This document shows positions 1-10,682 of a DNA stretch of 64,000 nt, piece by piece (the stretch's first letter is position 1; every line of letters starts with the position of its first letter). The notes beneath the pieces are model-generated. The model did not search any database. It was given only the letters and a program-made list of their open reading frames with translations, and was not told the origin of the DNA. The position numbers and the translations under genes are program-made. The DNA comes from an uncultured Thermotogaceae bacterium (GTDB lineage Bacteria; Thermotogota; Thermotogae; MWEM01). The stretch is from contig CAYWWY010000001.1 in NCBI GenBank assembly GCA_964462525.1, positions 183,074-247,073 on the forward strand, read 5' to 3'.

Positions 1-1595
1 ATGACATACAGTGCGTAACCGAAGGAATCGTACCCTCTATAGTACAGACGATCATCGACAACAAGCGGTTGGAATGCGCCTGTTTGTACAGAGGTATGCT
101 GATGGAAGGTCAGCTGGTTCAGATCAATGGAATAGATTTGGTATATTCCTTCCAGGTCCCAGGAAAAAAAGAGAGATGATTCGGTTAGGAAAGGATCGAT
201 CATCGCGTGATCAGAAGAATGGAGGCATATGAGCGCGCCATCCTCCCAAAGATACAGGTGTGTCTGTTCGTTGAAGGTAATGGAAAGCCCGATTCTTGGG
301 CCGTTAACGGAAATTCCGTTGATCCAAAAGTCTGGATTGCCATGCATCAGAGTTACTTCTTTGCTCGTATCGATCGTATGAACCATTAGGCTCGTTCCGC
401 CTTTATCGAGTTTCAGGTAAAGGATCGTACTTTCGTCCAACCACCGAACCTGGATGACCCGACCCTTTTCCGAAGCTTTACGCAAGACCCCATGATCGTC
501 TTCAAGAAAGAGTTCTTGACTGTACTGCTCCAAACCGTCGCCAAAACCATAGACTGCCGCAACTCTTCCTGCAGGGGAAATGTCAAAATCGATGGGCGTT
601 GGATCCAGGCGAAACACTCGACTCGTTCCATCGGGTTCGATCTGAAGCCACCGGGGCAGCATCTGGTCTGGCCTGTCAATCACCACGACCGAATTCCCAA
701 ACAAACGAGCCGTCCCAGAATGCGTTCGGCCCTTTTGAACTGGTTGTCCTTCATAAATAGGGTCGGGGATTGAAGCCTTTACGCGGTCGGATACCCATAC
801 CGCCCATTCTATAAGAAAGTCAGCCCAATCCATACCGGTAACCCCTTTTATGGCTTGAAAGAGGTTGTACCGATACTGAGTACCGTAGGTTTGAAAAAAA
901 GCCCGATATGCTTCGATCCCAAATCGGTCAATCATAAAGGCGAAAAAAAAGGCTCCATAAAGATAATTGTCTCCCACCGGTGTATATACAGGAGTCTGCA
1001 TCCCCCCCGCCAGTTGGAGACCCCGAAACCGTTCATCAAGGATGGCTGCTCGAAGGAACATTTCGAATCGGGAATCGTGAAGCCTCCCTTGATCAAAAAG
1101 AAGCGTTTCGGATACGATCGATCCGCCTTCGTGCATCCAGGATGGGGTAAATGCTGTATCGAAAAGCGTAGCCACAGGATTTCCGAATATCCGAAGCTGG
1201 TCTTTCAAGACACCCGGTTTATCAGCAATTAAGATATGGGTCAATTCGTGGGCAAATACATAAGGAACCCACCATTGATAATGGTTTTTCCCAATCCGAG
1301 TATCTGATCTGTTGACATAAATTGCCGTCATATGAGAAAAGATATCTGCGTAAGCGTTGGCATAGTCCCCGTCATCGACTAGATAGACGCGTACCCTCCG
1401 ATGTGGTTCAAATCCGTAGAAATCGCACAGATATTGGTAGATGCCAGGCCCCTCATGGTACAACTGCAGAGCGAAATCTTCCAACCCCTCTTGGTAAATG
1501 ATATCAAAGGGTTTTGTCCAGATTCGATAGTATTGGATCGCAAATGATGCAGTAAACGTCATCAGGCATACGAGAAAAAGGACCCATCTCTTCAT
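1..1595 (-). CDS. Secreted HExxH (zincin-like) metallopeptidase-family protein with a C-terminal beta-propeller-like region. Partial: the C-terminus runs off the window start.
   Basis: Manual translation of the minus strand from the ATG at 1595 gives a stop-free ORF to position 1. It has an N-terminal signal peptide (MKRWVLFLVCLMTFTASFA) and the motif FAHELTHILIAD (HExxH). The C-terminal part is rich in beta-strand/WD-like segments. It is absent from the ORF track, presumably because no stop lies inside the window. Confidence 0.55.
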   Translation of the reverse strand, partial: MKRWVLFLVCLMTFTASFAIQYYRIWTKPFDIIYQEGLEDFALQLYHEGPGIYQYLCDFYGFEPHRRVRVYLVDDGDYANAYADIFSHMTAIYVNRSDTRIGKNHYQWWVPYVFAHELTHILIADKPGVLKDQLRIFGNPVATLFDTAFTPSWMHEGGSIVSETLLFDQGRLHDSRFEMFLRAAILDERFRGLQLAGGMQTPVYTPVGDNYLYGAFFFAFMIDRFGIEAYRAFFQTYGTQYRYNLFQAIKGVTGMDWADFLIEWAVWVSDRVKASIPDPIYEGQPVQKGRTHSGTARLFGNSVVVIDRPDQMLPRWLQIEPDGTSRVFRLDPTPIDFDISPAGRVAAVYGFGDGLEQYSQELFLEDDHGVLRKASEKGRVIQVRWLDESTILYLKLDKGGTSLMVHTIDTSKEVTLMHGNPDFWINGISVNGPRIGLSITFNEQTHLYLWEDGALICLHSSDHAMIDPFLTESSLFFSWDLEGIYQIYSIDLNQLTFHQHTSVQTGAFQPLVVDDRLYYRGYDSFGYALYV

Positions 1596-1612
1596 TCGCG
1601 TCTCACCTCGCA

Positions 1613-1642
1613 ATAAAAAAGCGGGCTTGCGCCCGCTCTTTT
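1613..1642 (-). terminator. Rho-independent terminator of csp, bidirectional in shape.
   Basis: GCGGGC-ttgc-GCCCGC hairpin at 1621-1636, flanked by an A-run at 1615-1620 and tctttt at 1637-1642. On the minus strand it reads as stem plus TTTTTT immediately after the csp stop. Confidence 0.8.
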
Positions 1643-1656
1643 AGAATTCGCTGTAT

Positions 1657-1860
1657 TTATCCAAGGATAGAAACGTTTGCAGCTTGGGGTCCCTTGGTTC
1701 CATTTTGTACTTCGAACTCTACTTCTTGCCCTTCTTCGAGCGTTCGGAATCCATCCATATTGAGGGCGCTGAAGTGGACAAACACGTCATTGCCGTCGTC
1801 CTGAGAGATGAATCCGTAACCCTTCTTGGCATCAAACCACTTTACCTTACCTTTTAACAT
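1657..1860 (-). CDS. cspA: Cold-shock protein, CspA family, 67 aa.
   Basis: [33 protein letters not shown]... carries the canonical cold-shock-domain RNP motifs. The ATG at 1860 was chosen over the upstream ORF-track start. A ~240-nt untranslated leader follows, as is typical for csp genes. Confidence 0.9.
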
Positions 1861-2100
1861 CTTGTTCCTCCTAGAAACTTTGTTTTCCGTAAATACGGTT
1901 CCGAGGCATATCATACACGAAAAAACCCTCCTTGTCAACCCCTTGGATTTTTTTGAAACCGTTTGACGGAAATGGTGAACACTCAGCCAGACGGATCGTT
2001 AAAATGTTTTGGAATGTCCGGTATCCTGAAAAAAAATCAAGCTCATATTCAGGGGGTAAGCATTCGGTGAATTCGTACTGACTCGAAAAAAGGAAAAAGG

Positions 2101-5067
2101 CTAAAAATGGGTCTTTGCGATACGAAAGCCCCGGTTATTTTGTGAATTGCCTAGGGACCATTTATGAAACCGGTAAGCCAAGCGACAGTCGCCGGCATTG
2201 TTGTTCCAATGGCCACCTCGGACCATTTTATTCGAGTGGTGATCTAAGTGGCCAATAGGATTGGTCTTTGTTTCGGTTGTGTAGACTTGATAGGAGTCAT
2301 GACACCATTCCGTTACATTACCGGTCATGTCGTACAATCCCAATTGGTTCGGCGCCTTTTTTCCTACGGGTTGGGTACTCCCTCCAGAATTGTCCGTAAA
2401 CCAACCCACATCATCGATATCGTCGCCTCCCGCGTACAGATACCTTGGCGGAATCGGTAAAGCCAAATTGCCACCGCTCGCCGAATACTCCCACTCGGCT
2501 TCTGTAATCAGCCTATATCCAACTACTTGAGTAATATCTTCTGTTTTGGATCCCGCCGCGTCCAAAAAACTCCCTTGTTCTGGTTCGCCCTCTAAAATAT
2601 AGGCAACAGGCAATCCTTGTTGTTCGCTTAACCAATTACAGAAGGCGATCGCATCCCACCAAGTCACATTAACTACCGGACGGCTGCCTCTTCCCCAATC
2701 TTCATCACCAGGTTTAGCTCTATCCGTATCATCGCAGAAAGCATCGTATTCATAAAAGGTCACTGGATACGTTCCCACCCAAAAATCGTACGTCAGGTGA
2801 ACGGTATGAGTAGGTCCAGACTCGTGCAAATCTCCCTCTTCGTCACCCATTTGAAAAGTTCCTCCATAGACCAAGATCATTTCTGGGGGTGTGACCGTAA
2901 TCCGTTTTATGCCTTCCACTCCGGAACCATCTTTGGCGGTGGCTTTTACATCAACTATTCCTGTTGTCAGTCCCTTAAGAATACCTGTTTGGGTTATCTC
3001 GGCCCGATTCTCTCTGGGGGAGATCCCTCCAACATTTTCCACAGACCATGTGACCTCTTTGTTGGTTGCATTCTCGGGATTTACCTCCGCGATCATCTGA
3101 AGGGGTACCCCTACCCCAACAGATACTCTGCCTCCTTCTCCTGATACGGTAATGGCCGTTACAGGTTTATGAAAGGTAGCCACCAAGGTCACATTCTTTG
3201 CGGGCATAACATAGGAGAAGTTTTCTTCGACGCTTACTAGCTCCCCTCCGGACGTTCCAAACGTCCAATGGACAAAATCAAACCCCTCTGCGTCATCCGC
3301 ACGCACCTCAACCTGCGCGCCGGCAGGGTAATTCCCTGCGCCTTCTAAAACACCTACACCTTCCGGGTTTCCCTTCAAGGTCAAAGCAAAGATCTGTTCG
3401 AAGATGGCCAATAGGGTCACATTTGCCGCTGGCATGGTGAAGGTGTGGGTAGTGTCTGTGCTGACCGTGCTTCCAAAGCTATCTTCCCACTCAACAAAGC
3501 GATACCCAGCATTGGGTGTTGCTGTGATCTCTACCTCTGCTCCCGCTGCATAGGTGCCTCCTCCGGTTACCGTGCCCCATGTGTTGTTGTTTCTATTCAA
3601 TGTTAAGGTAAAAGCCTGTTCGAAGATGGCCAATAGGGTCACATTTGCCGCTGGCATGGTGAAGGTGTGGGTAGTGTCTGTGCTGACCGTGCTTCCAAAG
3701 CTATCTTCCCACTCAACAAAGCGATACCCCGTATTGGGTATGGCTGTGATCTCTACCTCTGCTCCCGCTACGTATGCTCCTCCTCCGGTCACGGTACCCC
3801 ATGCGTTGTTGTTTCTATTCAGGGTCAGGGTGTGAGCATCGGGTGGCAACTCTTCAAAATTTGCTACCAATGTCACGTTTTCTGCCGGCATCATGTAGTT
3901 GTAGTTGGCTTGTGTGCTGATTACCGAACCACCGTGGGTCCATTGGACAAAGCGGTAGCCTGCTGTTGGTGTGGCCTGGATGTTGGCAACCTGTCCAGCT
4001 GCATAGGTTCCTCCCCCAGCGACTGTTCCCCAAGCGTTGTTGTTTCTATTCAGGGTCAGGGTGTACAACTCAGCAGGTACTTCTTCAAAATCCGCTACCA
4101 ATGTCACATTCTCAGCAGGCATCGTGTAGCTGTGGTTGGCTTGTGTGCTGATGATCGTACCACCGTGGGTCCAATGGACAAAGCGGTAGCCCGCTGTTGG
4201 TGTGGCCTGGATGTTGGCAACCTGTCCGGCTACATAGGTTCCTCCCCCAGCGACTATTCCCCAAGCGTTGTTGTTTCTATTCAGGGTCAGGGTGAATGGC
4301 TGCGTTTGAGTGTTAAAGGTCCACACATCGCCTTCTGTCAATTCTCTTGGTTCGCTGGTTCTCCCGTCATCAGCGTCGACTCGCCAGAAGTATTGAGTGT
4401 CGTATGCCAATTCGGGCAGAGGGTGGTTCGTTTCGGTGGTTGTGGCGATCCATTCCAAATCGTCTTCCTCTGTGCTTAGGTAGACCATGTAGGTAAGTGG
4501 GTCGCCCTCAGGATCACCACAATCCCATCGCAAGACGACCCCTTCGATGGGTTGGTTTTCTGCGCCATCTTCCGGCTGGGGGTTGAATGGCTTGAGTGGG
4601 GGTTGGTTGAAGACTTCTATCCATAAGGTTGCTTCTTTTGTATTGTCATTTCTTGGGTTGATTTGATCGGGCGGGATGAGGGTGGCGCGGGTGGCGCGGA
4701 TGATGACCTCGTAGATTCCCGACGCCGTTGCGCTCACGTCGATTTCGTAGACTAAAACGCCATCGACAAGCTCAGTGGCTTGCGCCTGCTCTCGGAAGAT
4801 GACGGTGAACTCGACCCCAACGATGGGGGTGATGGAAAAGGAGAAGGTGTCTTCCCCCTCCAAACTGAATGGGGAGTTTTCGTCGATGTGGTCAGAGGCT
4901 GCCGCATCTCCGTCGCCTGTAATAATCTGCACCAACGCGTCCAGGACTTCGGGATCTTCCAGATTAGGAAGGACGATCTTGGGGATATCTCGGCTTACGC
5001 AGGAGAAAAGAAGAAAGACCATTATCAAGACCAGTGTCAGGATCGCAATCCGTTGTTTCGTGCCCAT
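2101..5067 (-). CDS. Large surface lipoprotein. It carries a Big_2 (bacterial Ig-like) domain, 4-5 tandem Listeria-Bacteroides (InlB B-type) repeats and a C-terminal formylglycine-generating-enzyme (FGE/SUMF1-like) domain.
   Basis: Lipobox LLFSC follows a hydrophobic signal peptide. The ATG at 5067 has GGAGGTG 8 nt upstream; the ORF-track start at 5103 is a GTG. The repeats read TLTLNRNNNAWGTV(A/T)GGGTY(A)AG..., a Big_2-like segment reads VTAITVSG...KATAKDGSG, and the C-terminal RGGHWNNNAGDCRLAYRF...NRGFR is FGE-sulfatase-like. Confidence 0.75.
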   Translation of the reverse strand: MGTKQRIAILTLVLIMVFLLFSCVSRDIPKIVLPNLEDPEVLDALVQIITGDGDAAASDHIDENSPFSLEGEDTFSFSITPIVGVEFTVIFREQAQATELVDGVLVYEIDVSATASGIYEVIIRATRATLIPPDQINPRNDNTKEATLWIEVFNQPPLKPFNPQPEDGAENQPIEGVVLRWDCGDPEGDPLTYMVYLSTEEDDLEWIATTTETNHPLPELAYDTQYFWRVDADDGRTSEPRELTEGDVWTFNTQTQPFTLTLNRNNNAWGIVAGGGTYVAGQVANIQATPTAGYRFVHWTHGGTIISTQANHSYTMPAENVTLVADFEEVPAELYTLTLNRNNNAWGTVAGGGTYAAGQVANIQATPTAGYRFVQWTHGGSVISTQANYNYMMPAENVTLVANFEELPPDAHTLTLNRNNNAWGTVTGGGAYVAGAEVEITAIPNTGYRFVEWEDSFGSTVSTDTTHTFTMPAANVTLLAIFEQAFTLTLNRNNNTWGTVTGGGTYAAGAEVEITATPNAGYRFVEWEDSFGSTVSTDTTHTFTMPAANVTLLAIFEQIFALTLKGNPEGVGVLEGAGNYPAGAQVEVRADDAEGFDFVHWTFGTSGGELVSVEENFSYVMPAKNVTLVATFHKPVTAITVSGEGGRVSVGVGVPLQMIAEVNPENATNKEVTWSVENVGGISPRENRAEITQTGILKGLTTGIVDVKATAKDGSGVEGIKRITVTPPEMILVYGGTFQMGDEEGDLHESGPTHTVHLTYDFWVGTYPVTFYEYDAFCDDTDRAKPGDEDWGRGSRPVVNVTWWDAIAFCNWLSEQQGLPVAYILEGEPEQGSFLDAAGSKTEDITQVVGYRLITEAEWEYSASGGNLALPIPPRYLYAGGDDIDDVGWFTDNSGGSTQPVGKKAPNQLGLYDMTGNVTEWCHDSYQVYTTETKTNPIGHLDHHSNKMVRGGHWNNNAGDCRLAYRFHKWSLGNSQNNRGFRIAKTHF
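3390..4300 (-). repeat. Intragenic tandem DNA repeats: two near-identical ~222-bp units followed by two near-identical ~231-bp units.
   Basis: The ~110-nt string cgaagatggccaatagggtcacatttgccgctggcatggtgaaggtgtgggtagtgtctgtgctgaccgtgcttccaaagctatcttcccactcaacaaagcgataccc starts at 3399 and again at 3621. A second unit (ttctgccggcatcatgtag...cagggtcagggtg) recurs at ~3876 and ~4110. These encode the InlB-B-like protein repeats. Confidence 0.85.
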
Positions 5068-5827
5068 ACATTTGCACCTCCAGAGCATGATTTGTTTAGT
5101 CACGCATATGATGGAGGATTTGTGGACTACAAAAAATCCGATTGCTGTATATCATAGGAACGAAAGGGAATAGAAAAGAAAACCGCTACAAGAATGAATG
5201 AGAAATAAGGAGCTTTTTGCTGGAACTCGAATCCTCACCGCAAAATCCCCCTTCTTTTCATCTTTTCATTTTACCATTTTGTGTACCTATTGTCAAGGAT
5301 CCGAAATGCTTCATAAATAAAAAGTACCCAAAATAGGATCTATTTTGAGAGCAGGGGACCGAGGCAAGGAGGAGCGTGTTCACATGGGGGAAAAATCCGT
5401 ATGGGAGAAATACGGGAAGTTGTTGAGAAGAGTGCGAAAAGATATCGAGAAAGCAATGACAGGTCACCCAAAACACAGATTTTGAACGAGTGTGACGAAA
5501 TGACGGGGTGCGAACGTCATTATGCAGCAAAGAACTTTCGTACAGAGCATTTGAGGCTTCGAGGGTTAAAAGGCGAAAAAAGAAGCCCAAAAGGGCAAAA
5601 GTCCAAGAAGATCCACAGGCATTTACAGACACCATATCACCGATGGCTGGAATTATCTTGGACCTCTCTAGATAAAAAAGAAGGGCTCCGCGGGGAAAGA
5701 TTTCAGATAAGTAATATACTATATAATACCATATATTCATACGAATCATGTCATATGGTATGGGTGAAATAAGATCAGATGTCCCTCCGTCAATAATATT
5801 GGAAAATCAAAATCGGAGGTGAAAGGT

Positions 5828-6289
5828 ATGTTGGTTCGAAGGGTACAAAGCGATTGGGACAACTTTTACAAACCGTTCTTGTCGATGCAAAGGGAGATTG
5901 ACAATCTTTTTTCCAACTTTCTTTCTGGGGAACGAGGCGCTAGTATCGATCGATCTGGTTGGAGGGTTCCCAGCGTAGATGTATATGATACTGAGAAAGA
6001 GTTTGTATTTGAATTTGAACTCCCGGGTTTTGACAAAGAGGATGTAAAAGTCAACGTGCAGAACGATGTGTTGACCGTGGAGTGTGAAAAAAAACTCCAG
6101 AGAGACTCCAAGGAAAAGAACTATCACCTTACGGAACGCCAAGGGCTTTGTTTCAAGAGGCAGTTCAATCTTCCAGACACGGCAGAATCTGACAAGACGT
6201 TCGCGCAATTTGAAAAAGGAGTTCTAGAGATCAGAATGCCGAAAAAAGAGGTTGCTCAGCCAAAAAGTATCGACATTCAAGTGAAATGA
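5828..6289 (+). CDS. Small heat-shock protein, Hsp20/alpha-crystallin family.
   Basis: Alpha-crystallin domain reads VDVYDTEKEFVFEFELPGFDKEDVKVNVQNDVLTVECEKK...GVLEIRMPK. ATG 5828 lies 7 nt after GGAGGTG; the ORF-track start at 5819 is a GTG. Confidence 0.85.
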   Translation: MLVRRVQSDWDNFYKPFLSMQREIDNLFSNFLSGERGASIDRSGWRVPSVDVYDTEKEFVFEFELPGFDKEDVKVNVQNDVLTVECEKKLQRDSKEKNYHLTERQGLCFKRQFNLPDTAESDKTFAQFEKGVLEIRMPKKEVAQPKSIDIQVK

Positions 6290-6310
6290 CCCATATCGCA
6301 AAAAAGCAAA

Positions 6311-6337
6311 AGGGCTGTTGATGACAGCCCTTTTGTT
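6311..6337 (+). terminator. Rho-independent terminator after hsp20.
   Basis: AGGGCTGT-tgatg-ACAGCCCT hairpin followed by TTTTGTT. An A-rich run sits upstream, so it could also terminate the convergent regulator gene. Confidence 0.75.
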
Positions 6338-6370
6338 CTAGTTCTCAAAAATAAGAGGAAAGGGATCTCT

Positions 6371-7126
6371 CTAGAATGGAATCCAATAAGCACGACCATC
6401 AGGTGTTCGTTGCAGAAACCCATATTCGATCAAGTATCGGCGCACCATGACATAATCATCAATTACGTTCATCAGAATTCGATTGATTTCGGATTCCTCA
6501 TATTTGATCCCTTTCTTCAAATGTTCCTTTATTATGTGTCTCAAGATGATCCATTTAGATTTTTGCTTGTTTGGAAAAACAATGATCTTTCCATTTCGGT
6601 CAACATACTTTTCTATCATTTTCTGCGCCTCTTCTTCTGTCACCGAGTATCGATCATCGATCATAGTTGCAGTTTTTGGGTATTCTACGAGCTTGTCTTC
6701 TCTTTTTTCCAATACTTCCACTAATTCCCACAGGGCAAGGAAAATCCGTGCCTGTTTCGCTTTTTCTCGGAGCCGAAAGCGGTGATTTCGGACAGTGGAT
6801 TCGCTTACCTTCATCTCCTGAGCAATATCCCGATTGCTTTTCCCATCATGGAGAAAAGTAAGTAAGACCGTTTGGGTTTCGCTCAACACTGAAAAACGCT
6901 GATCTAACTCCAACAGAAAGTTCCACGTTCCTCCGTGATCACATCGAATATGAAGATCGATTGCCTTTTCAGCAAGGTATAGATCACCTTCGACCTCATA
7001 GACCTTCCCTTCTTCATATACTCGTCCACAGACCAGGCAGATCCATTTTTTCTCTTCCGGAATCCAAAAACTTCCTGCTTTTAGATCTTCAGCAGGGACC
7101 TTCCAAAACCATTCATTCAGATCCAT
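6371..7126 (-). CDS. Putative transcriptional regulator with an N-terminal Cys/His zinc-ribbon-like motif, a central LuxR/GerE-type HTH and an uncharacterised C-terminal domain.
   Basis: HTH segment LLTFLHDGKSNRDIAQEMKVSESTVRNHRFRLREKA. N-terminus reads CLVCGRVY...HIRCDHGG. It is transcribed divergently from the metF-metH operon. Confidence 0.55.
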   Translation of the reverse strand: MDLNEWFWKVPAEDLKAGSFWIPEEKKWICLVCGRVYEEGKVYEVEGDLYLAEKAIDLHIRCDHGGTWNFLLELDQRFSVLSETQTVLLTFLHDGKSNRDIAQEMKVSESTVRNHRFRLREKAKQARIFLALWELVEVLEKREDKLVEYPKTATMIDDRYSVTEEEAQKMIEKYVDRNGKIIVFPNKQKSKWIILRHIIKEHLKKGIKYEESEINRILMNVIDDYVMVRRYLIEYGFLQRTPDGRAYWIPF

Positions 7127-7393
7127 CGTACCACCTCCATGGTCTGATTATATCACATAACATAAAATATTACAAACGTATACAGATAATGTCTACATAT
7201 ATAGATCATATTTCTGGATATGTTTGACTATCACTAGGCATTGGATGAACTGAGAACTGGATCAAAGACGGCTTAGCCGGGGAAGCAAACAACAGGGGGA
7301 AGATGGAATGGCGCGGAAGGGACCATTGTGTCTTTCTTCGGTTTCGAATTTCGGGGATGATGAAACACTGAATCGCTCAAAAACCTTTTGTCA

Positions 7394-7402
7394 TGGTATA
7401 AT
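7394..7402 (+). promoter_or_regulatory. Extended -10 (TGGTATAAT) of the metF-metH operon promoter.
   Basis: tcaTGGTATAATc lies 45 nt upstream of the metF ATG. The same TGGTATAAT element recurs in front of two other genes in the window. Confidence 0.5.
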
Positions 7403-7447
7403 CATCGCAGAATTTGGTGACGAGATCCTTAGATATTGGGGGTACTT

Positions 7448-8347
7448 ATGAAAAACAGAATAGCAGCATTCATGAACAGCCTATCGAGACCCTTTTCCTT
7501 GGAAATCTTCCCGCCAAAAAAAGAACATCAAAAAGCTTTTGAGTTTGTCTTGAGAACGATCGAAGCCCTCTGCCCCACGAACCCTTCATTCATCAGCGTA
7601 ACTTATGGTGCAGGCGGATCGAATAAAGGAAAAGTCGTGCAGATCTCTCACGAAGTGCTGGAAAGAGGAATCCTCCCGCTCAGTCATTTGACAGCGGTCG
7701 GATTTTCGAAGGAAGACGTCCGACTGGTTCTTGACCAGCTGCATGAAGCGGGAGTGCGCGCGATTCTCGCTTTGAGGGGAGATATTCCGAAAGGGGTTAC
7801 TTACCCAGATGGGGCGTGGAAAGACTTTCACCTTGCCATAGACTTGATCCGGCTCGTGCGAGAAGATGGCCGATTCTGTGTGGGGGCTGCAACCTATCCG
7901 GAGGGCCACCCTACCCATCGCGATCCAGATCGCTCGGTCGAGCATTTTGCTATCAAAGCATCTGCTGGGGCTGATTTTTTTATCTCCCAAATGTTTTTTG
8001 ACAACTCTTGCTTCTACCGTTTCGTGGATACAGTTAGAAAGCGCGGGCTTTCTCATCCAATCATTCCCGGAATCATGCCTTTGGTAAAAAAGATCCAAAT
8101 CCAGAAAATCCTCGAATTATCTGGGGCAATGATTCCCAAAACTCTGCTTGAATCAATTGAACGGTATCAGGATGACCCAGAAAGCTTTTGCCAAGCAGGG
8201 ATCGATTTTGCAACTCAACAGGTCCTCATGCTCAGAGATCAAGGAATCCCCAATGTTCACCTCTATACAATGAATCAACCTGATCCGATTCTGAAAATAC
8301 TCACACAAGCAAGTCTTTTGGATGAAAAGGAGATCCACAATGGATAG
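7448..8347 (+). CDS. metF: 5,10-methylenetetrahydrofolate reductase (MetF).
   Basis: FSLEIFPPKK...ISVTYGAGGSNKG...HLTAVGFSKED...ILALRGDIPKG matches MTHFR conserved blocks. The ORF-track start at 7436 is a TTG, so the first ATG (7448) was chosen. Confidence 0.8.
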   Translation: MKNRIAAFMNSLSRPFSLEIFPPKKEHQKAFEFVLRTIEALCPTNPSFISVTYGAGGSNKGKVVQISHEVLERGILPLSHLTAVGFSKEDVRLVLDQLHEAGVRAILALRGDIPKGVTYPDGAWKDFHLAIDLIRLVREDGRFCVGAATYPEGHPTHRDPDRSVEHFAIKASAGADFFISQMFFDNSCFYRFVDTVRKRGLSHPIIPGIMPLVKKIQIQKILELSGAMIPKTLLESIERYQDDPESFCQAGIDFATQQVLMLRDQGIPNVHLYTMNQPDPILKILTQASLLDEKEIHNG

Positions 8348-10682
8348 AGCAGAGTTTTCGGACCGAATTCAAAAAGAAGTGATTCTTTTGGACGGTTCAT
8401 ATGGCGCAAACCTCCAAATCAAAAGGTCGGATGCCCGCGCAGTGGAAATGTACAATATCAAAGACCCCGATTCTGTATTGGACCTTCATAAGGCTTATGT
8501 GCTCGCTGGGTCCGATCTGATCCTTACGAACTCCTTCAGCGCAAATCCACTTAAGCTAAAGATGCTTGGATTGGAGGGACTATTCGAACCAATAAATCGA
8601 GCCGCTGTTCATATAGCGAAGAAAGCTACCCAAGGAAGGAGTTGGGTATTTGGAGACATCTCTTCTTCGGGGCATTTTGCGCAACCATTTGGAGAGCCTT
8701 CTTTTGAAGAGTTGGAAGAATGCTTTTCTCAACAAGCCCTGGTTTTATTCGATTCTGGAGTGGATGGAATCCTTTTGGAAACCTTTACAGACATCAAAGA
8801 ACTGAAAGCTGCTATTTCTGGTGTGCGAAAGATCGCTCCCCATATCCCTTTAATCGCTTCGATGACCTTTACCGAGGAAGGAAGAACAGTATCGGGAACA
8901 CCGGTTCACGGATTCGGGATCCTAATGGAAGATTTGGACGTGGATGTGGTCGGGATTAATTGTACGCTTGACCCCAAGCAAATTATCCCGATTGCGCGTT
9001 CTCTGATGGAAGCAACTTCAAAACCCATCTGCGTCCAACCCAATGCAGGGAAACCGATCACGATTGGCCAAGAATCTCGATACGATCTGAGTCCCGATCA
9101 GTTTCGGCTTTATATGGAAGATTCTCTGGATTTGGGGGTATCTATGGTTGGTGGCTGCTGCGGAACAAACCCGAAGCATATCCACGAATTGCGGTTGCTC
9201 CTCGAGATTTACCATCGAAGCGAAACTAAGAGATTGGTTCACCCAAGGCTTTTTGTCACATCACGAACTTACTGTATTTCACCTGCCCCGTTTATGATAA
9301 TTGGAGAACGGATCAACCCTGCTTCTCGGAATGATTTTCAGAAAGAGATTGCGGAGATGGATATGAGAACAGTAATCCGTGAAGCAGCCAGCCAAGAACA
9401 AGAAGGAGCCGACGTATTGGATCTGAATTTGGGAATTGAAAAAGGCTTAACGCCTGATCATATACGAAAAGCAATCTGCGATTTGGATCGGGCGTCTTGC
9501 GTACCTCTTTCCATTGATATCCAAACGCGGGAATTACGGGAAACTGCATTGAGAGAATACCCAGGTCGCGGAATTATTAACTCCGCACGGATTACCCCAA
9601 AAAGCTTGGAATTTGCTATTCATTGTCTGAAGCAGTACGGAGGGTTAGTCATCCTATTGGGTATGGGAAAAACAGTTCCCGATACAGCCCTCGAACGGTT
9701 TCAATTGATCCTTAATGGGATTCAAGAAATGGAAAACGCTGGCATTTCTCGTGACCGTATCTTGGCTGATCCCTTGGTCTTGACAATTGGAGCGGGAAAC
9801 AAACCAAAAACCACGCTAGAAGCAATCCGATTGTTACATGAACAAGGGATTCGAACTACATTAGGTCTGTCCAACCTGAGTTACGGGATGAGAAATCGGA
9901 GCCATATCAATGCCGCCTTTATTTCTCAAGCCATAAGTGCTGGATTGGATAGCGCGATCATGAATCCAGCGGAAAAAATCGTCATGAATGTTTTAGATGG
10001 CAGTTTAACCCTACAAGGAAAAGAACGAGAAAACACCAATATTGGCGTGGATGACCCATTGATTCGGTCTTTGCTGCATGGAGATCTTCATACTGCCGAC
10101 CGTTTGATCCAAGAAAAGCTTGAAACTGGCCGTAAATCGGATATTGGTCAATCGGTTCTTGGAGAATCTCTTCAAGAGATTGGAGAGATGTACGCCAACG
10201 GAACCTTGTTTTTGCCTCATCTTCTTATGGCTGCTCAAACCGCAGCACCAATCTTCGACCGTTTGAACACCCTAGTAGGAAAACGGAGTCGGGCGATTGG
10301 CCGCGTTTTGCTGGCAACTGTTGAAGGGGACGTACACGATATTGGAAAGAAAATTATCGGGACTGTTTTGCAGAGTGGAGGATTTGAAGTGGTAGATATT
10401 GGAATCGACCAGTCGTCTCAGGAGATCCTTGATGCGGTTCTTAGGGAAAAGCCGGATATTGTCGGTTTATCAGCGATGATGACGACCACTATTGGAAAGG
10501 TCGAAGAGTTTTCCCGACTCCGCAAAGAGGTTCATCTTTCAATTCCCTTAATCTGCGGCGGGGCATCTCTTAATGGAGAGCTTGCCAAGAGCTTTGGGTG
10601 CGAAGGATATTGCGCCAATGCCTCAGGTGTAGTAAAACTGTGCAAGCAACTCCTTGGGAAGGAAGTGGTTCCATTTGATTGA
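8340..10682 (+). CDS. metH: Cobalamin-dependent methionine synthase core (Hcy S-methyltransferase, pterin-binding and B12-binding domains). The AdoMet reactivation domain is absent.
   Basis: LLDGSYGANL...GGCCGTNP (zinc/Hcy site), then the B12-binding DxHxxG block VEGDVHDIGKKIIGTVLQSGGFEVVDIG. At 781 aa it is too short to contain the activation domain. ATG 8340 is preceded by AAAGGAG and overlaps the metF stop (ATGGATAG). Confidence 0.85.
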   Translation: MDRAEFSDRIQKEVILLDGSYGANLQIKRSDARAVEMYNIKDPDSVLDLHKAYVLAGSDLILTNSFSANPLKLKMLGLEGLFEPINRAAVHIAKKATQGRSWVFGDISSSGHFAQPFGEPSFEELEECFSQQALVLFDSGVDGILLETFTDIKELKAAISGVRKIAPHIPLIASMTFTEEGRTVSGTPVHGFGILMEDLDVDVVGINCTLDPKQIIPIARSLMEATSKPICVQPNAGKPITIGQESRYDLSPDQFRLYMEDSLDLGVSMVGGCCGTNPKHIHELRLLLEIYHRSETKRLVHPRLFVTSRTYCISPAPFMIIGERINPASRNDFQKEIAEMDMRTVIREAASQEQEGADVLDLNLGIEKGLTPDHIRKAICDLDRASCVPLSIDIQTRELRETALREYPGRGIINSARITPKSLEFAIHCLKQYGGLVILLGMGKTVPDTALERFQLILNGIQEMENAGISRDRILADPLVLTIGAGNKPKTTLEAIRLLHEQGIRTTLGLSNLSYGMRNRSHINAAFISQAISAGLDSAIMNPAEKIVMNVLDGSLTLQGKERENTNIGVDDPLIRSLLHGDLHTADRLIQEKLETGRKSDIGQSVLGESLQEIGEMYANGTLFLPHLLMAAQTAAPIFDRLNTLVGKRSRAIGRVLLATVEGDVHDIGKKIIGTVLQSGGFEVVDIGIDQSSQEILDAVLREKPDIVGLSAMMTTTIGKVEEFSRLRKEVHLSIPLICGGASLNGELAKSFGCEGYCANASGVVKLCKQLLGKEVVPFD

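Follow-up and report, generated by a model that had tools for sequence, protein, structure and literature searches.

What does a domain of the formylglycine-generating enzyme (FGE) family do when it stands at the C-terminus of a long exported protein, behind an array of InlB-B-type repeats? This question is raised by the gene at positions 2101-5067 (minus strand) of a 64,000-nucleotide (nt) stretch of contig CAYWWY010000001.1, from an uncultured Thermotogaceae bacterium; we refer to this whole stretch as the window, and positions are those of the window unless another locus is named. Relatives are cited by our own handles, P for proteins and L for loci. A sequence-only reading had described the product as combining InlB-B-type repeats, a Big_2 domain and a C-terminal FGE-like domain, and we found Pfam matches to all three. 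We think it probable that the protein is a lipid-anchored, non-enzymatic binding protein, with a TvpA-like head whose loop is fixed, carried on a modular stalk whose repeats convert one another and occasionally gain or lose units. This reading is supported by how the domains are laid out, by the catalytic residues that have been lost, by the lack of a sulfatase or of parts of a diversity-generating retroelement (DGR) nearby, and by the pattern of gene conversion among the repeats.

In the arrangement we propose, beta-rich stalk modules (a lineage-specific N-terminal region, one FN3-like domain, five InlB-B-type repeats and one Big_2 domain) would carry an FGE-type head of C-type-lectin fold at the C-terminus of an exported protein. 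The head, having lost the copper-binding Cys pair, would most likely be a non-enzymatic ligand-binding module, with its specificity set by a C-terminal loop that is the counterpart of the TvpA variable region. Gene conversion would swap sequence among the stalk repeats, and now and then unequal recombination or slippage would add or remove a unit, such that stalk length could differ between strains.

The head has the FGE fold. The domain at amino acids (aa) 727-985 (2113-2889) matches the FGE-sulfatase profile (PF03781) with an E-value of 1.7e-46 across 254 of 255 profile positions; its structural model has high confidence (predicted local distance difference test, pLDDT, 93), and with this model FGE structures were matched at E ~1e-17. 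We then compared the domain with human SUMF1, using a copy of SUMF1 that was checked against 1Y1E (100% identity). Mutation of SUMF1 residues S333, C336, H337, Y340 or C341 alters FGE activity (PMC4505483). In our alignment these residues correspond to H953, N956, N957, D960 and C961, which define the active-site-equivalent segment H953...C961 (2185-2211), and only Cys341 is kept. The sequence-only reading had looked to the catalytic Cys pair and the metal ligands for a decision; of the pair, the Cys341 equivalent is present but that of Cys336 is lost. The same pattern extends to 71 relatives, in which the Cys336-equivalent position is Phe in 27, Ser in 13, Asn in 11 and Cys in none, while the Cys341-equivalent position is Cys in 37 of the 71 and is not Cys in some close homologues. 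For calcium, we relied on a list of SUMF1 ligands that reportedly comes from Dierks and colleagues in 2005 (N259, I260, D273 and F275; N293, G296, A298 and E300), of which we confirmed the residue types at these positions. The SUMF1 loop with the presumed first site is missing from the head.

Nor did we find a substrate for such an enzyme. A PROSITE-type sulfatase signature has no match in any of the six frames of the window, no sulfatase Pfam family occurs within +/-10 kb of the gene in the annotated allele contigs (L002 neighbours included), and the window holds no second FGE-like gene. None of the NCBIfam equivalogs GldK, PvdO, EgtB, OvoA and SenA came near its cut-off (GldK, 84 of 350 bits; EgtB, 41 of 360; PvdO, 63 of 500), and TIGR02171 reached 89.8 of 544 bits. 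Thus, the earlier statements that no sulfatase is encoded nearby and that the domain is not a classical maturase both hold, and, judged from its aligned residues, the head is not a formylglycine-generating enzyme.

The best relative of known structure points to binding. TvpA of Treponema denticola is the best PDB sequence match (E 6e-23, ~30% identity), and Foldseek, with the same model, places TvpA (2y3c) first (E 2.2e-22, TM-score 0.77), then CarF, then the FGEs. The C-terminal 45 aa of TvpA are diversified by a DGR and form its ligand-binding site (PMC6328139), and FGE-type heads are regarded as binding modules in further systems (PMC7159879). The sequence-only reading had noted that FGE-like domains of this sort often bind substrates or metals and do not mature sulfatases, and TvpA as best structural relative fits a binding role. 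The papers searched had no information on CarF (PDB 5AOH), which ranks second by structure, or on FGE-like lipoproteins of Thermotogota. Alignment to the last ~40 residues of TvpA places the equivalent of its variable region at aa 944-984 (2116-2238). Across the family, no other part of the domain varies as much as this segment (entropy of 2.20 versus 1.21 bits), and the two heads of P0008 are nearly identical outside of it. The C-terminal segment is also rich in Asn (7 in 45 aa, encoded by four AAT and three AAC codons). Thus, the head has both TvpA-like features, the C-type-lectin/FGE fold and the variable C-terminal segment. TvpA and this protein are alike in being lipoproteins with an FGE-type C-type-lectin fold, in holding the binding or variable segment at the extreme C-terminus, where it ends in GFR-x-A, and in having Cys at the Cys341-equivalent position. 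In contrast to TvpA, which is a single-domain protein diversified by a DGR, the head here stands behind ~700 aa of stalk modules and has neither a reverse transcriptase nor a template repeat in the window or flanks, nor allelic variation in seven alleles.

Since TvpA, the best relative, is a DGR variable protein, we tested the gene as a DGR target. The window contains no template-like copy of the last 450 nt of the gene and no open reading frame (ORF) for a YxDD reverse transcriptase. The search was also run on 29 related loci, among which L024 served as a working positive control; the script that detected the L024 DGR found no reverse transcriptase or template repeat in the Thermotogota loci L010-L018. 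Furthermore, no differences occur in aa 940-988 among seven alleles of the gene (the window and six metagenome contigs, >99% identical overall), which do differ elsewhere. Substitutions relative to the orthologue number 15 of 138 in the segment and 73 of 672 in the rest of the domain, with no adenine excess. We rejected the gene as a DGR target on these grounds: no reverse transcriptase or template in the window or flanks, no allelic variation and no adenine bias. The control locus L024, from a Neomegalonema metagenome-assembled genome (MAG), contains a complete DGR at 900-3300 and 7700-7830, with a reverse transcriptase of the IGNLTSQ...YVDD type, a template at ~2732-2846 and two FGE-type variable regions (916-1046 and, on the other strand, ~3106-3236) that share 87-91% identity with the template. 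An Anaerolineae contig (L025:1-500) also contains a fragment of a reverse transcriptase.

The repeats of the stalk are five Flg_new_2 units (PF18998, a divergent InlB B-repeat; Pfam E 5.9e-91) of ~70-77 aa, which match PF09479 and TIGR02543 as well. R1 (aa 258-334, 4066-4296) and R2 (aa 335-411, 3835-4065) are 231 nt each; R3 (aa 412-485, 3613-3834) and R4 (aa 486-559, 3391-3612) are 222 nt each; and R5 (aa 560-634, 3166-3390) is divergent. The two 231-nt and two 222-nt units, with TRF scores of 798 and 765, are those that the sequence-only reading had taken as four central repeats, but there are five units in all. That reading had further called the four near-identical at the DNA level and their duplication very recent, and neither description survives. 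R1 and R2 are 87.9% identical (28 of 231 nt differ) and R3 and R4 are 89.6% identical (23 of 222 nt differ), while the two pairs share ~65% nt identity with each other and R5 shares ~50% with all others. This 10-12% divergence, with patchy homogenisation, is comparable to that between species, given that the gene and its orthologue from another Thermotogota MAG are 83-91% identical in nucleotides. As proteins, R3 and R4 are 91% identical, compared to 86% for each against the single corresponding unit in the orthologue at L010 (a Thermotogaceae MAG), and R1 and R2 are 82% identical, compared to 76-77% against the P0002 unit. Because the members of each pair are closer to one another than to the units of relatives, the duplications are either lineage-specific or have been homogenised. 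R5 is 92% identical in amino acids to the second unit of the L010 orthologue.

The distribution of differences between R3 and R4 indicates how sequence moves between them. All 23 differences fall either within the first 105 nt or in the final 3 nt, and between them lies a gene-conversion tract of 114 nt in R3 (3616-3729) identical to its partner in R4 (3394-3507); when 23 differences were placed at random 200,000 times, not once did a difference-free run of at least 115 nt remain. The seven alleles likewise differ in clusters and not evenly along the gene. The common metagenome allele has 26 differences between R3 and R4 and an identical tract of only 74 nt; in the window allele, distinguishing sites 180, 189 and 190 have been homogenised; and in the L003 allele, R3 contains an R4-like patch at sites 93-103. 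These three states differ precisely at the sites that distinguish R3 from R4, which is direct evidence for ongoing gene conversion between the two units.

Unit number also appears to change. The P0122 allele (914 aa, contig L001) is shorter by exactly 222 nt, and its remaining unit is a chimera that follows R3 to position 105 and R4 from position 180, so that the crossover point falls within the 74-nt identical tract. Unequal recombination or slippage would produce such a deletion. In relatives, the L010 orthologue has two InlB-type units only, and P0125 amounts to P0002 with a perfect tandem duplication of 78 aa (993 of 998 residues identical, at the protein level, once one copy is removed). 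Thus, the suggestion of recombination with possible size variation is upheld by the R3/R4 tract, the mosaic allele states, one candidate allele shorter by 222 nt and the P0125 duplication. A scan of JGI metagenomes gave no further alleles, only L030 (the same as L001) and more distant relatives.

Two smaller polymorphisms were noted among the alleles. A 9-nt indel (RAT or RATRAT) segregates in the lineage-specific N-terminal region: the tandem duplication, at 4691-4699 (minus strand) in the window, is shared by five other alleles and is single in L003 (985 aa), a small slippage polymorphism. At the end of R4 and the start of R5 (3326-3433, minus strand), ten substitutions in ~110 nt separate the window allele from the six metagenome alleles, and the window state, GNPEGVGV, matches the orthologue of another species in protein, which suggests a recombination patch or an old polymorphism.

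Such behavior has precedent in tandem-repeat surface proteins that vary in copy number. Examples are the streptococcal alpha C/Rib and the staphylococcal Bap-type proteins, whose repeats usually show almost 100% identity and whose number of copies covers a wide range. The protein described here resembles them in that recombination between units with lengths that are multiples of three yields in-frame gain or loss of units and mosaic alleles, but its units are 88-90% identical and their number differs in one of seven alleles. The nearest repeat arrays are in large secreted proteins of Bacteroidota. The likeness to InlB B-repeat/Flg_new_2 proteins (Listeria InlB, Bacteroidota cargo of type IX secretion) lies in the PF18998 repeats, of which there are five here; in contrast, those proteins carry leucine-rich repeats or type IX sorting domains.

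The other stalk modules are a Big_2 bacterial Ig-like domain between R5 and the head (aa 635-716, 2920-3165; Pfam E 2.9e-9) and two N-terminal modules. One of these is an FN3-like domain (aa 153-257, 4297-4611). In a scan of representative proteins at E<=1e-3, 6239 match, mostly to aa 153-257 and with 3-41 stretches per protein, and thus this module type is widespread and is found in giant proteins as arrays that reach 41 copies. By comparison, aa 24-152 (4612-4998) are lineage-specific, covered only by P0250, P0002, P0380 and P0389 in the full HMMER scan of 1.84 billion representatives; this region is predicted to be all-beta. An AlphaFold model of the N-terminal 234 aa, from a five-sequence alignment, was unusable (pLDDT 50), and the hints of FN3 in this part are weak (fn3 at E 0.014 in a Pfam search at E<=10; neogenin FN3 in a PDB sequence search).

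The gene is a real one, and its start and export signals are recognizable. An ORF of 1000 aa spans 2101-5103 on the minus strand; we take the ATG at 5067 as the likely start, which gives a complete coding sequence of 988 aa followed by a TAG stop, with a product 99-100% identical to the public-assembly proteins P0001, P0121 and P0124. This start, already chosen in the sequence-only reading, agrees with the public protein calls and is preceded at 7 nt by a Shine-Dalgarno sequence, GGAGGTG (5075-5081). A consensus scan identified a promoter-like TTGACA-17-TAAAAT ~200 nt upstream of the start (5268-5296), with 11 of 12 consensus matches and a TG extension, which may serve as the promoter. The protein begins with MGTKQRIAILTLVLIMVFLLFSC, which contains a lipobox (L-F-S-C), and we read aa 1-23 (4999-5067) as a lipoprotein signal peptide, MGTKQRIAILTLVLIMVFLLFS-C23, with the invariant lipobox Cys. 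LLFSC is kept in P0002 and in the L010 orthologue, and P0380 carries FLFFAC. Thus, the protein is probably lipid-anchored at Cys23 and would reside in the cell envelope. As for the earlier description as a surface lipoprotein, the signal peptide and lipobox fit a lipoprotein, but the word surface is an assumption, since in a Thermotogota cell the anchored protein could lie under the toga, in the periplasm.

Besides this uncertainty of location, several points weigh against the reading we prefer. In the head, both Cys961 (equivalent to Cys341) and Arg966 (equivalent to Arg349) are kept, as are D913, G916, V918 and E920 at what we presume to be calcium site 2; the kept residues could thus serve a different chemistry at this site, to which we give little credence. 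The N-terminal ~130 aa have no recognisable fold in the model (pLDDT 50), in Pfam or in a PDB sequence search. Ligand binding, like any consequence of stalk length, is something we infer. Furthermore, unit count is equal in six of seven alleles, and the exception, P0122, comes from a short-read assembly, where a de Bruijn path error at k<=74 would give an identical result.

How do other explanations compare? That the protein is a classical aerobic FGE, tethered to the membrane and maturing exported sulfatases, is hardly credible: a full-length PF03781 match, similarity to human and bacterial FGE structures (1Y1E, 2Q17, 6S07; E ~1e-10 by sequence and 1e-17 by structure) and the equivalents of Cys341 and Arg349 would all be expected of it, but Cys336 is replaced by Asn, S333, H337 and Y340 are replaced as well, the family has no Cys at the Cys336 position, with some close homologues lacking that of Cys341 too, and no sulfatase signature accompanies the gene in the window or in the flanks of the allele contigs. 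A role as an enzyme of another kind, as in PvdO, EgtB, CalU17 or ToxD, is more plausible but still improbable. The family and structure matches show that this fold hosts several chemistries, and Cys961, Arg966, Glu920 and Asp913 are conserved; against this, all equivalog scores are far under their cut-offs, relatives conserve the putative active-site segment less than any other part of the domain, and an extracytoplasmic, multi-repeat architecture is typical of binding proteins. We consider it very unlikely that the C-terminal segment is, as in TvpA, the variable region of a remote DGR. Remote template repeats are on record (PMC7159879), no PDB entry is a better relative than TvpA, the segment that corresponds to its variable region is rich in Asn and the most variable in the family, and distant FGE-type relatives are true DGR targets (L024, with reverse transcriptase, template and variable regions; L025, with a reverse transcriptase). 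Nonetheless, the segment is identical in all seven alleles, its substitution density equals that of the rest of the domain without adenine excess, its Asn codons are mixed, and neither the window nor the Thermotogota loci L010-L018 yielded a template or reverse transcriptase to the script that detected L024.

We also considered that the protein might be a structural scaffold of the envelope and not a receptor, in the manner of the type IX secretion-ring lipoproteins GldJ, GldK and PorK, which we judge unlikely. Like these proteins and the Fibrobacter TIGR02171 family, it combines a lipoprotein signal with an FGE fold that lacks catalysis, and it gives partial NCBIfam matches; the E-values are 1.3e-23 for TIGR03525 (GldK) and ~1e-11 for PorK structures, and the chromosomal position of the gene is conserved in two species. 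However, its scores are too far below the GldK and TIGR02171 cut-offs for membership, its partner domains are different, and the Foldseek TM-score to PorK is 0.5, compared to 0.77 to TvpA. No genes for PorL, PorM or PorN partners are nearby, the gene has no type IX context and belongs to a different phylum; type IX secretion is not known from Thermotogota. Finally, close relatives vary in domain content, with 2 to 5 repeats and either one or two FGE heads. Thus, we retain as the best explanation a non-enzymatic, lipid-anchored binding protein with a TvpA-like head.

The relatives of the gene are numerous. About 1,600 proteins share words with it; by genome, the nearest are MAGs of uncultured Thermotogaceae, Kosmotogaceae and Thermotogota, and the named relatives are from Mesotoga, Kosmotogaceae and Thermotogaceae. 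Related MAGs have several FGE-like paralogues each, mostly small (280-420 aa). Relatives differ freely in architecture, having either one head or two and anything from one to five InlB-type units, and PF18998 and PF03781 are combined in only a handful of them (P0002, P0008, P0010, P0095, P0127 and P0128). P0010, with Flg_new_2 and two FGE-sulfatase heads that are 56-60% identical to the window head, belongs to a cluster of four very large exported proteins encoded side by side in the same metagenome series (L008:1-14221 and L009:1-13513); the other three combine Ig-like and Flg_new_2 domains, DUF5018 and FGE-sulfatase, and Flg_new_2 with a NosD beta-helix. In L018, another Thermotogota MAG, positions 2527-9156 contain two successive pairs of genes, in which a Peptidase_C14 caspase with PEGA alternates with PEGA plus FGE-sulfatase; all these proteins have apparent signal-like N-termini. 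This pairing of caspase and FGE domains recalls associations in conflict systems (PMC7159879).

The surroundings of the gene offer no operon partner that would suggest a pathway. On one side are hsp20 and a GerE/DUF2087 regulator, and on the other, directly downstream, is a cold-shock gene (ORF 1657-1938, minus strand), which is covered by a cspA thermoregulator RNA leader at 1612-1963 (minus strand; Rfam RF01766, scoring 85 bits where the gathering score is 78) and has its own promoter-like TTGACA-17-TATGAT at 1938-1910. Beyond it, from position 1 to ~1595 on the minus strand and cut by the window edge, lies the gene for an exported 863-aa protein with an HExxH motif (FAHELTHIL), which is complete in L002:13473-16064. 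This protein has no Pfam family and no PDB sequence relative, adjoins cspA and the repeat-protein gene in two species (869 aa in L010), and may be an uncharacterised envelope metalloprotease. The L010 orthologue of the repeat-protein gene (L010:1007-3339) has a stop that separates Big_2 from the FGE-like domain, leaving ORFs 1007-2518 and 2545-3339, and is either a pseudogene or an assembly error.

The gene differs from its surroundings in G+C content (51.2%, compared to 44.4% for the whole window and 40-43% for the adjoining region 5100-7500). Since it lies at the same locus in a second species, we set aside horizontal transfer, and amino-acid composition is the simpler explanation. Several long antisense ORFs within the gene had been dismissed as artefacts of the repeats, and for those at 3667-4479 (plus strand, 270 aa) and 2797-3144 we agree. 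Neither has a Pfam match, and the translation of 3667-4479 repeats with the period of the sense units; these ORFs are artefacts because they mirror units whose length is a multiple of three.

This gene does not overturn current understanding; it adds one more, fairly ordinary protein to families already known. It is of use mainly to annotators. Members of the family routinely receive the name formylglycine-generating enzyme (or family protein) required for sulfatase activity, and as the catalytic Cys pair is absent from this gene and from most relatives, that name misleads for them and, as an automatic name, is wrong for this gene. The locus is also a small, clean case of intragenic concerted evolution, with mosaic alleles, a homogenised tract and a candidate unit deletion, and it documents that TvpA-like heads without a DGR occur in a phylum whose envelope proteins have been little studied. 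A more speculative idea, which we would not expect to hold but which fits the family, is that this Thermotogota lineage maintains a large, DGR-independent repertoire of TvpA-like heads, whose loops are diversified by mutation and turnover of paralogues, and that this gene displays one such head on a stalk tuned by recombination. If so, the protein might act at the toga as a receptor or decoy, for phage, partner cells or polymers, for example, and the L018 heads paired with exported caspase-like proteins would hint at a role in conflict or sensing.

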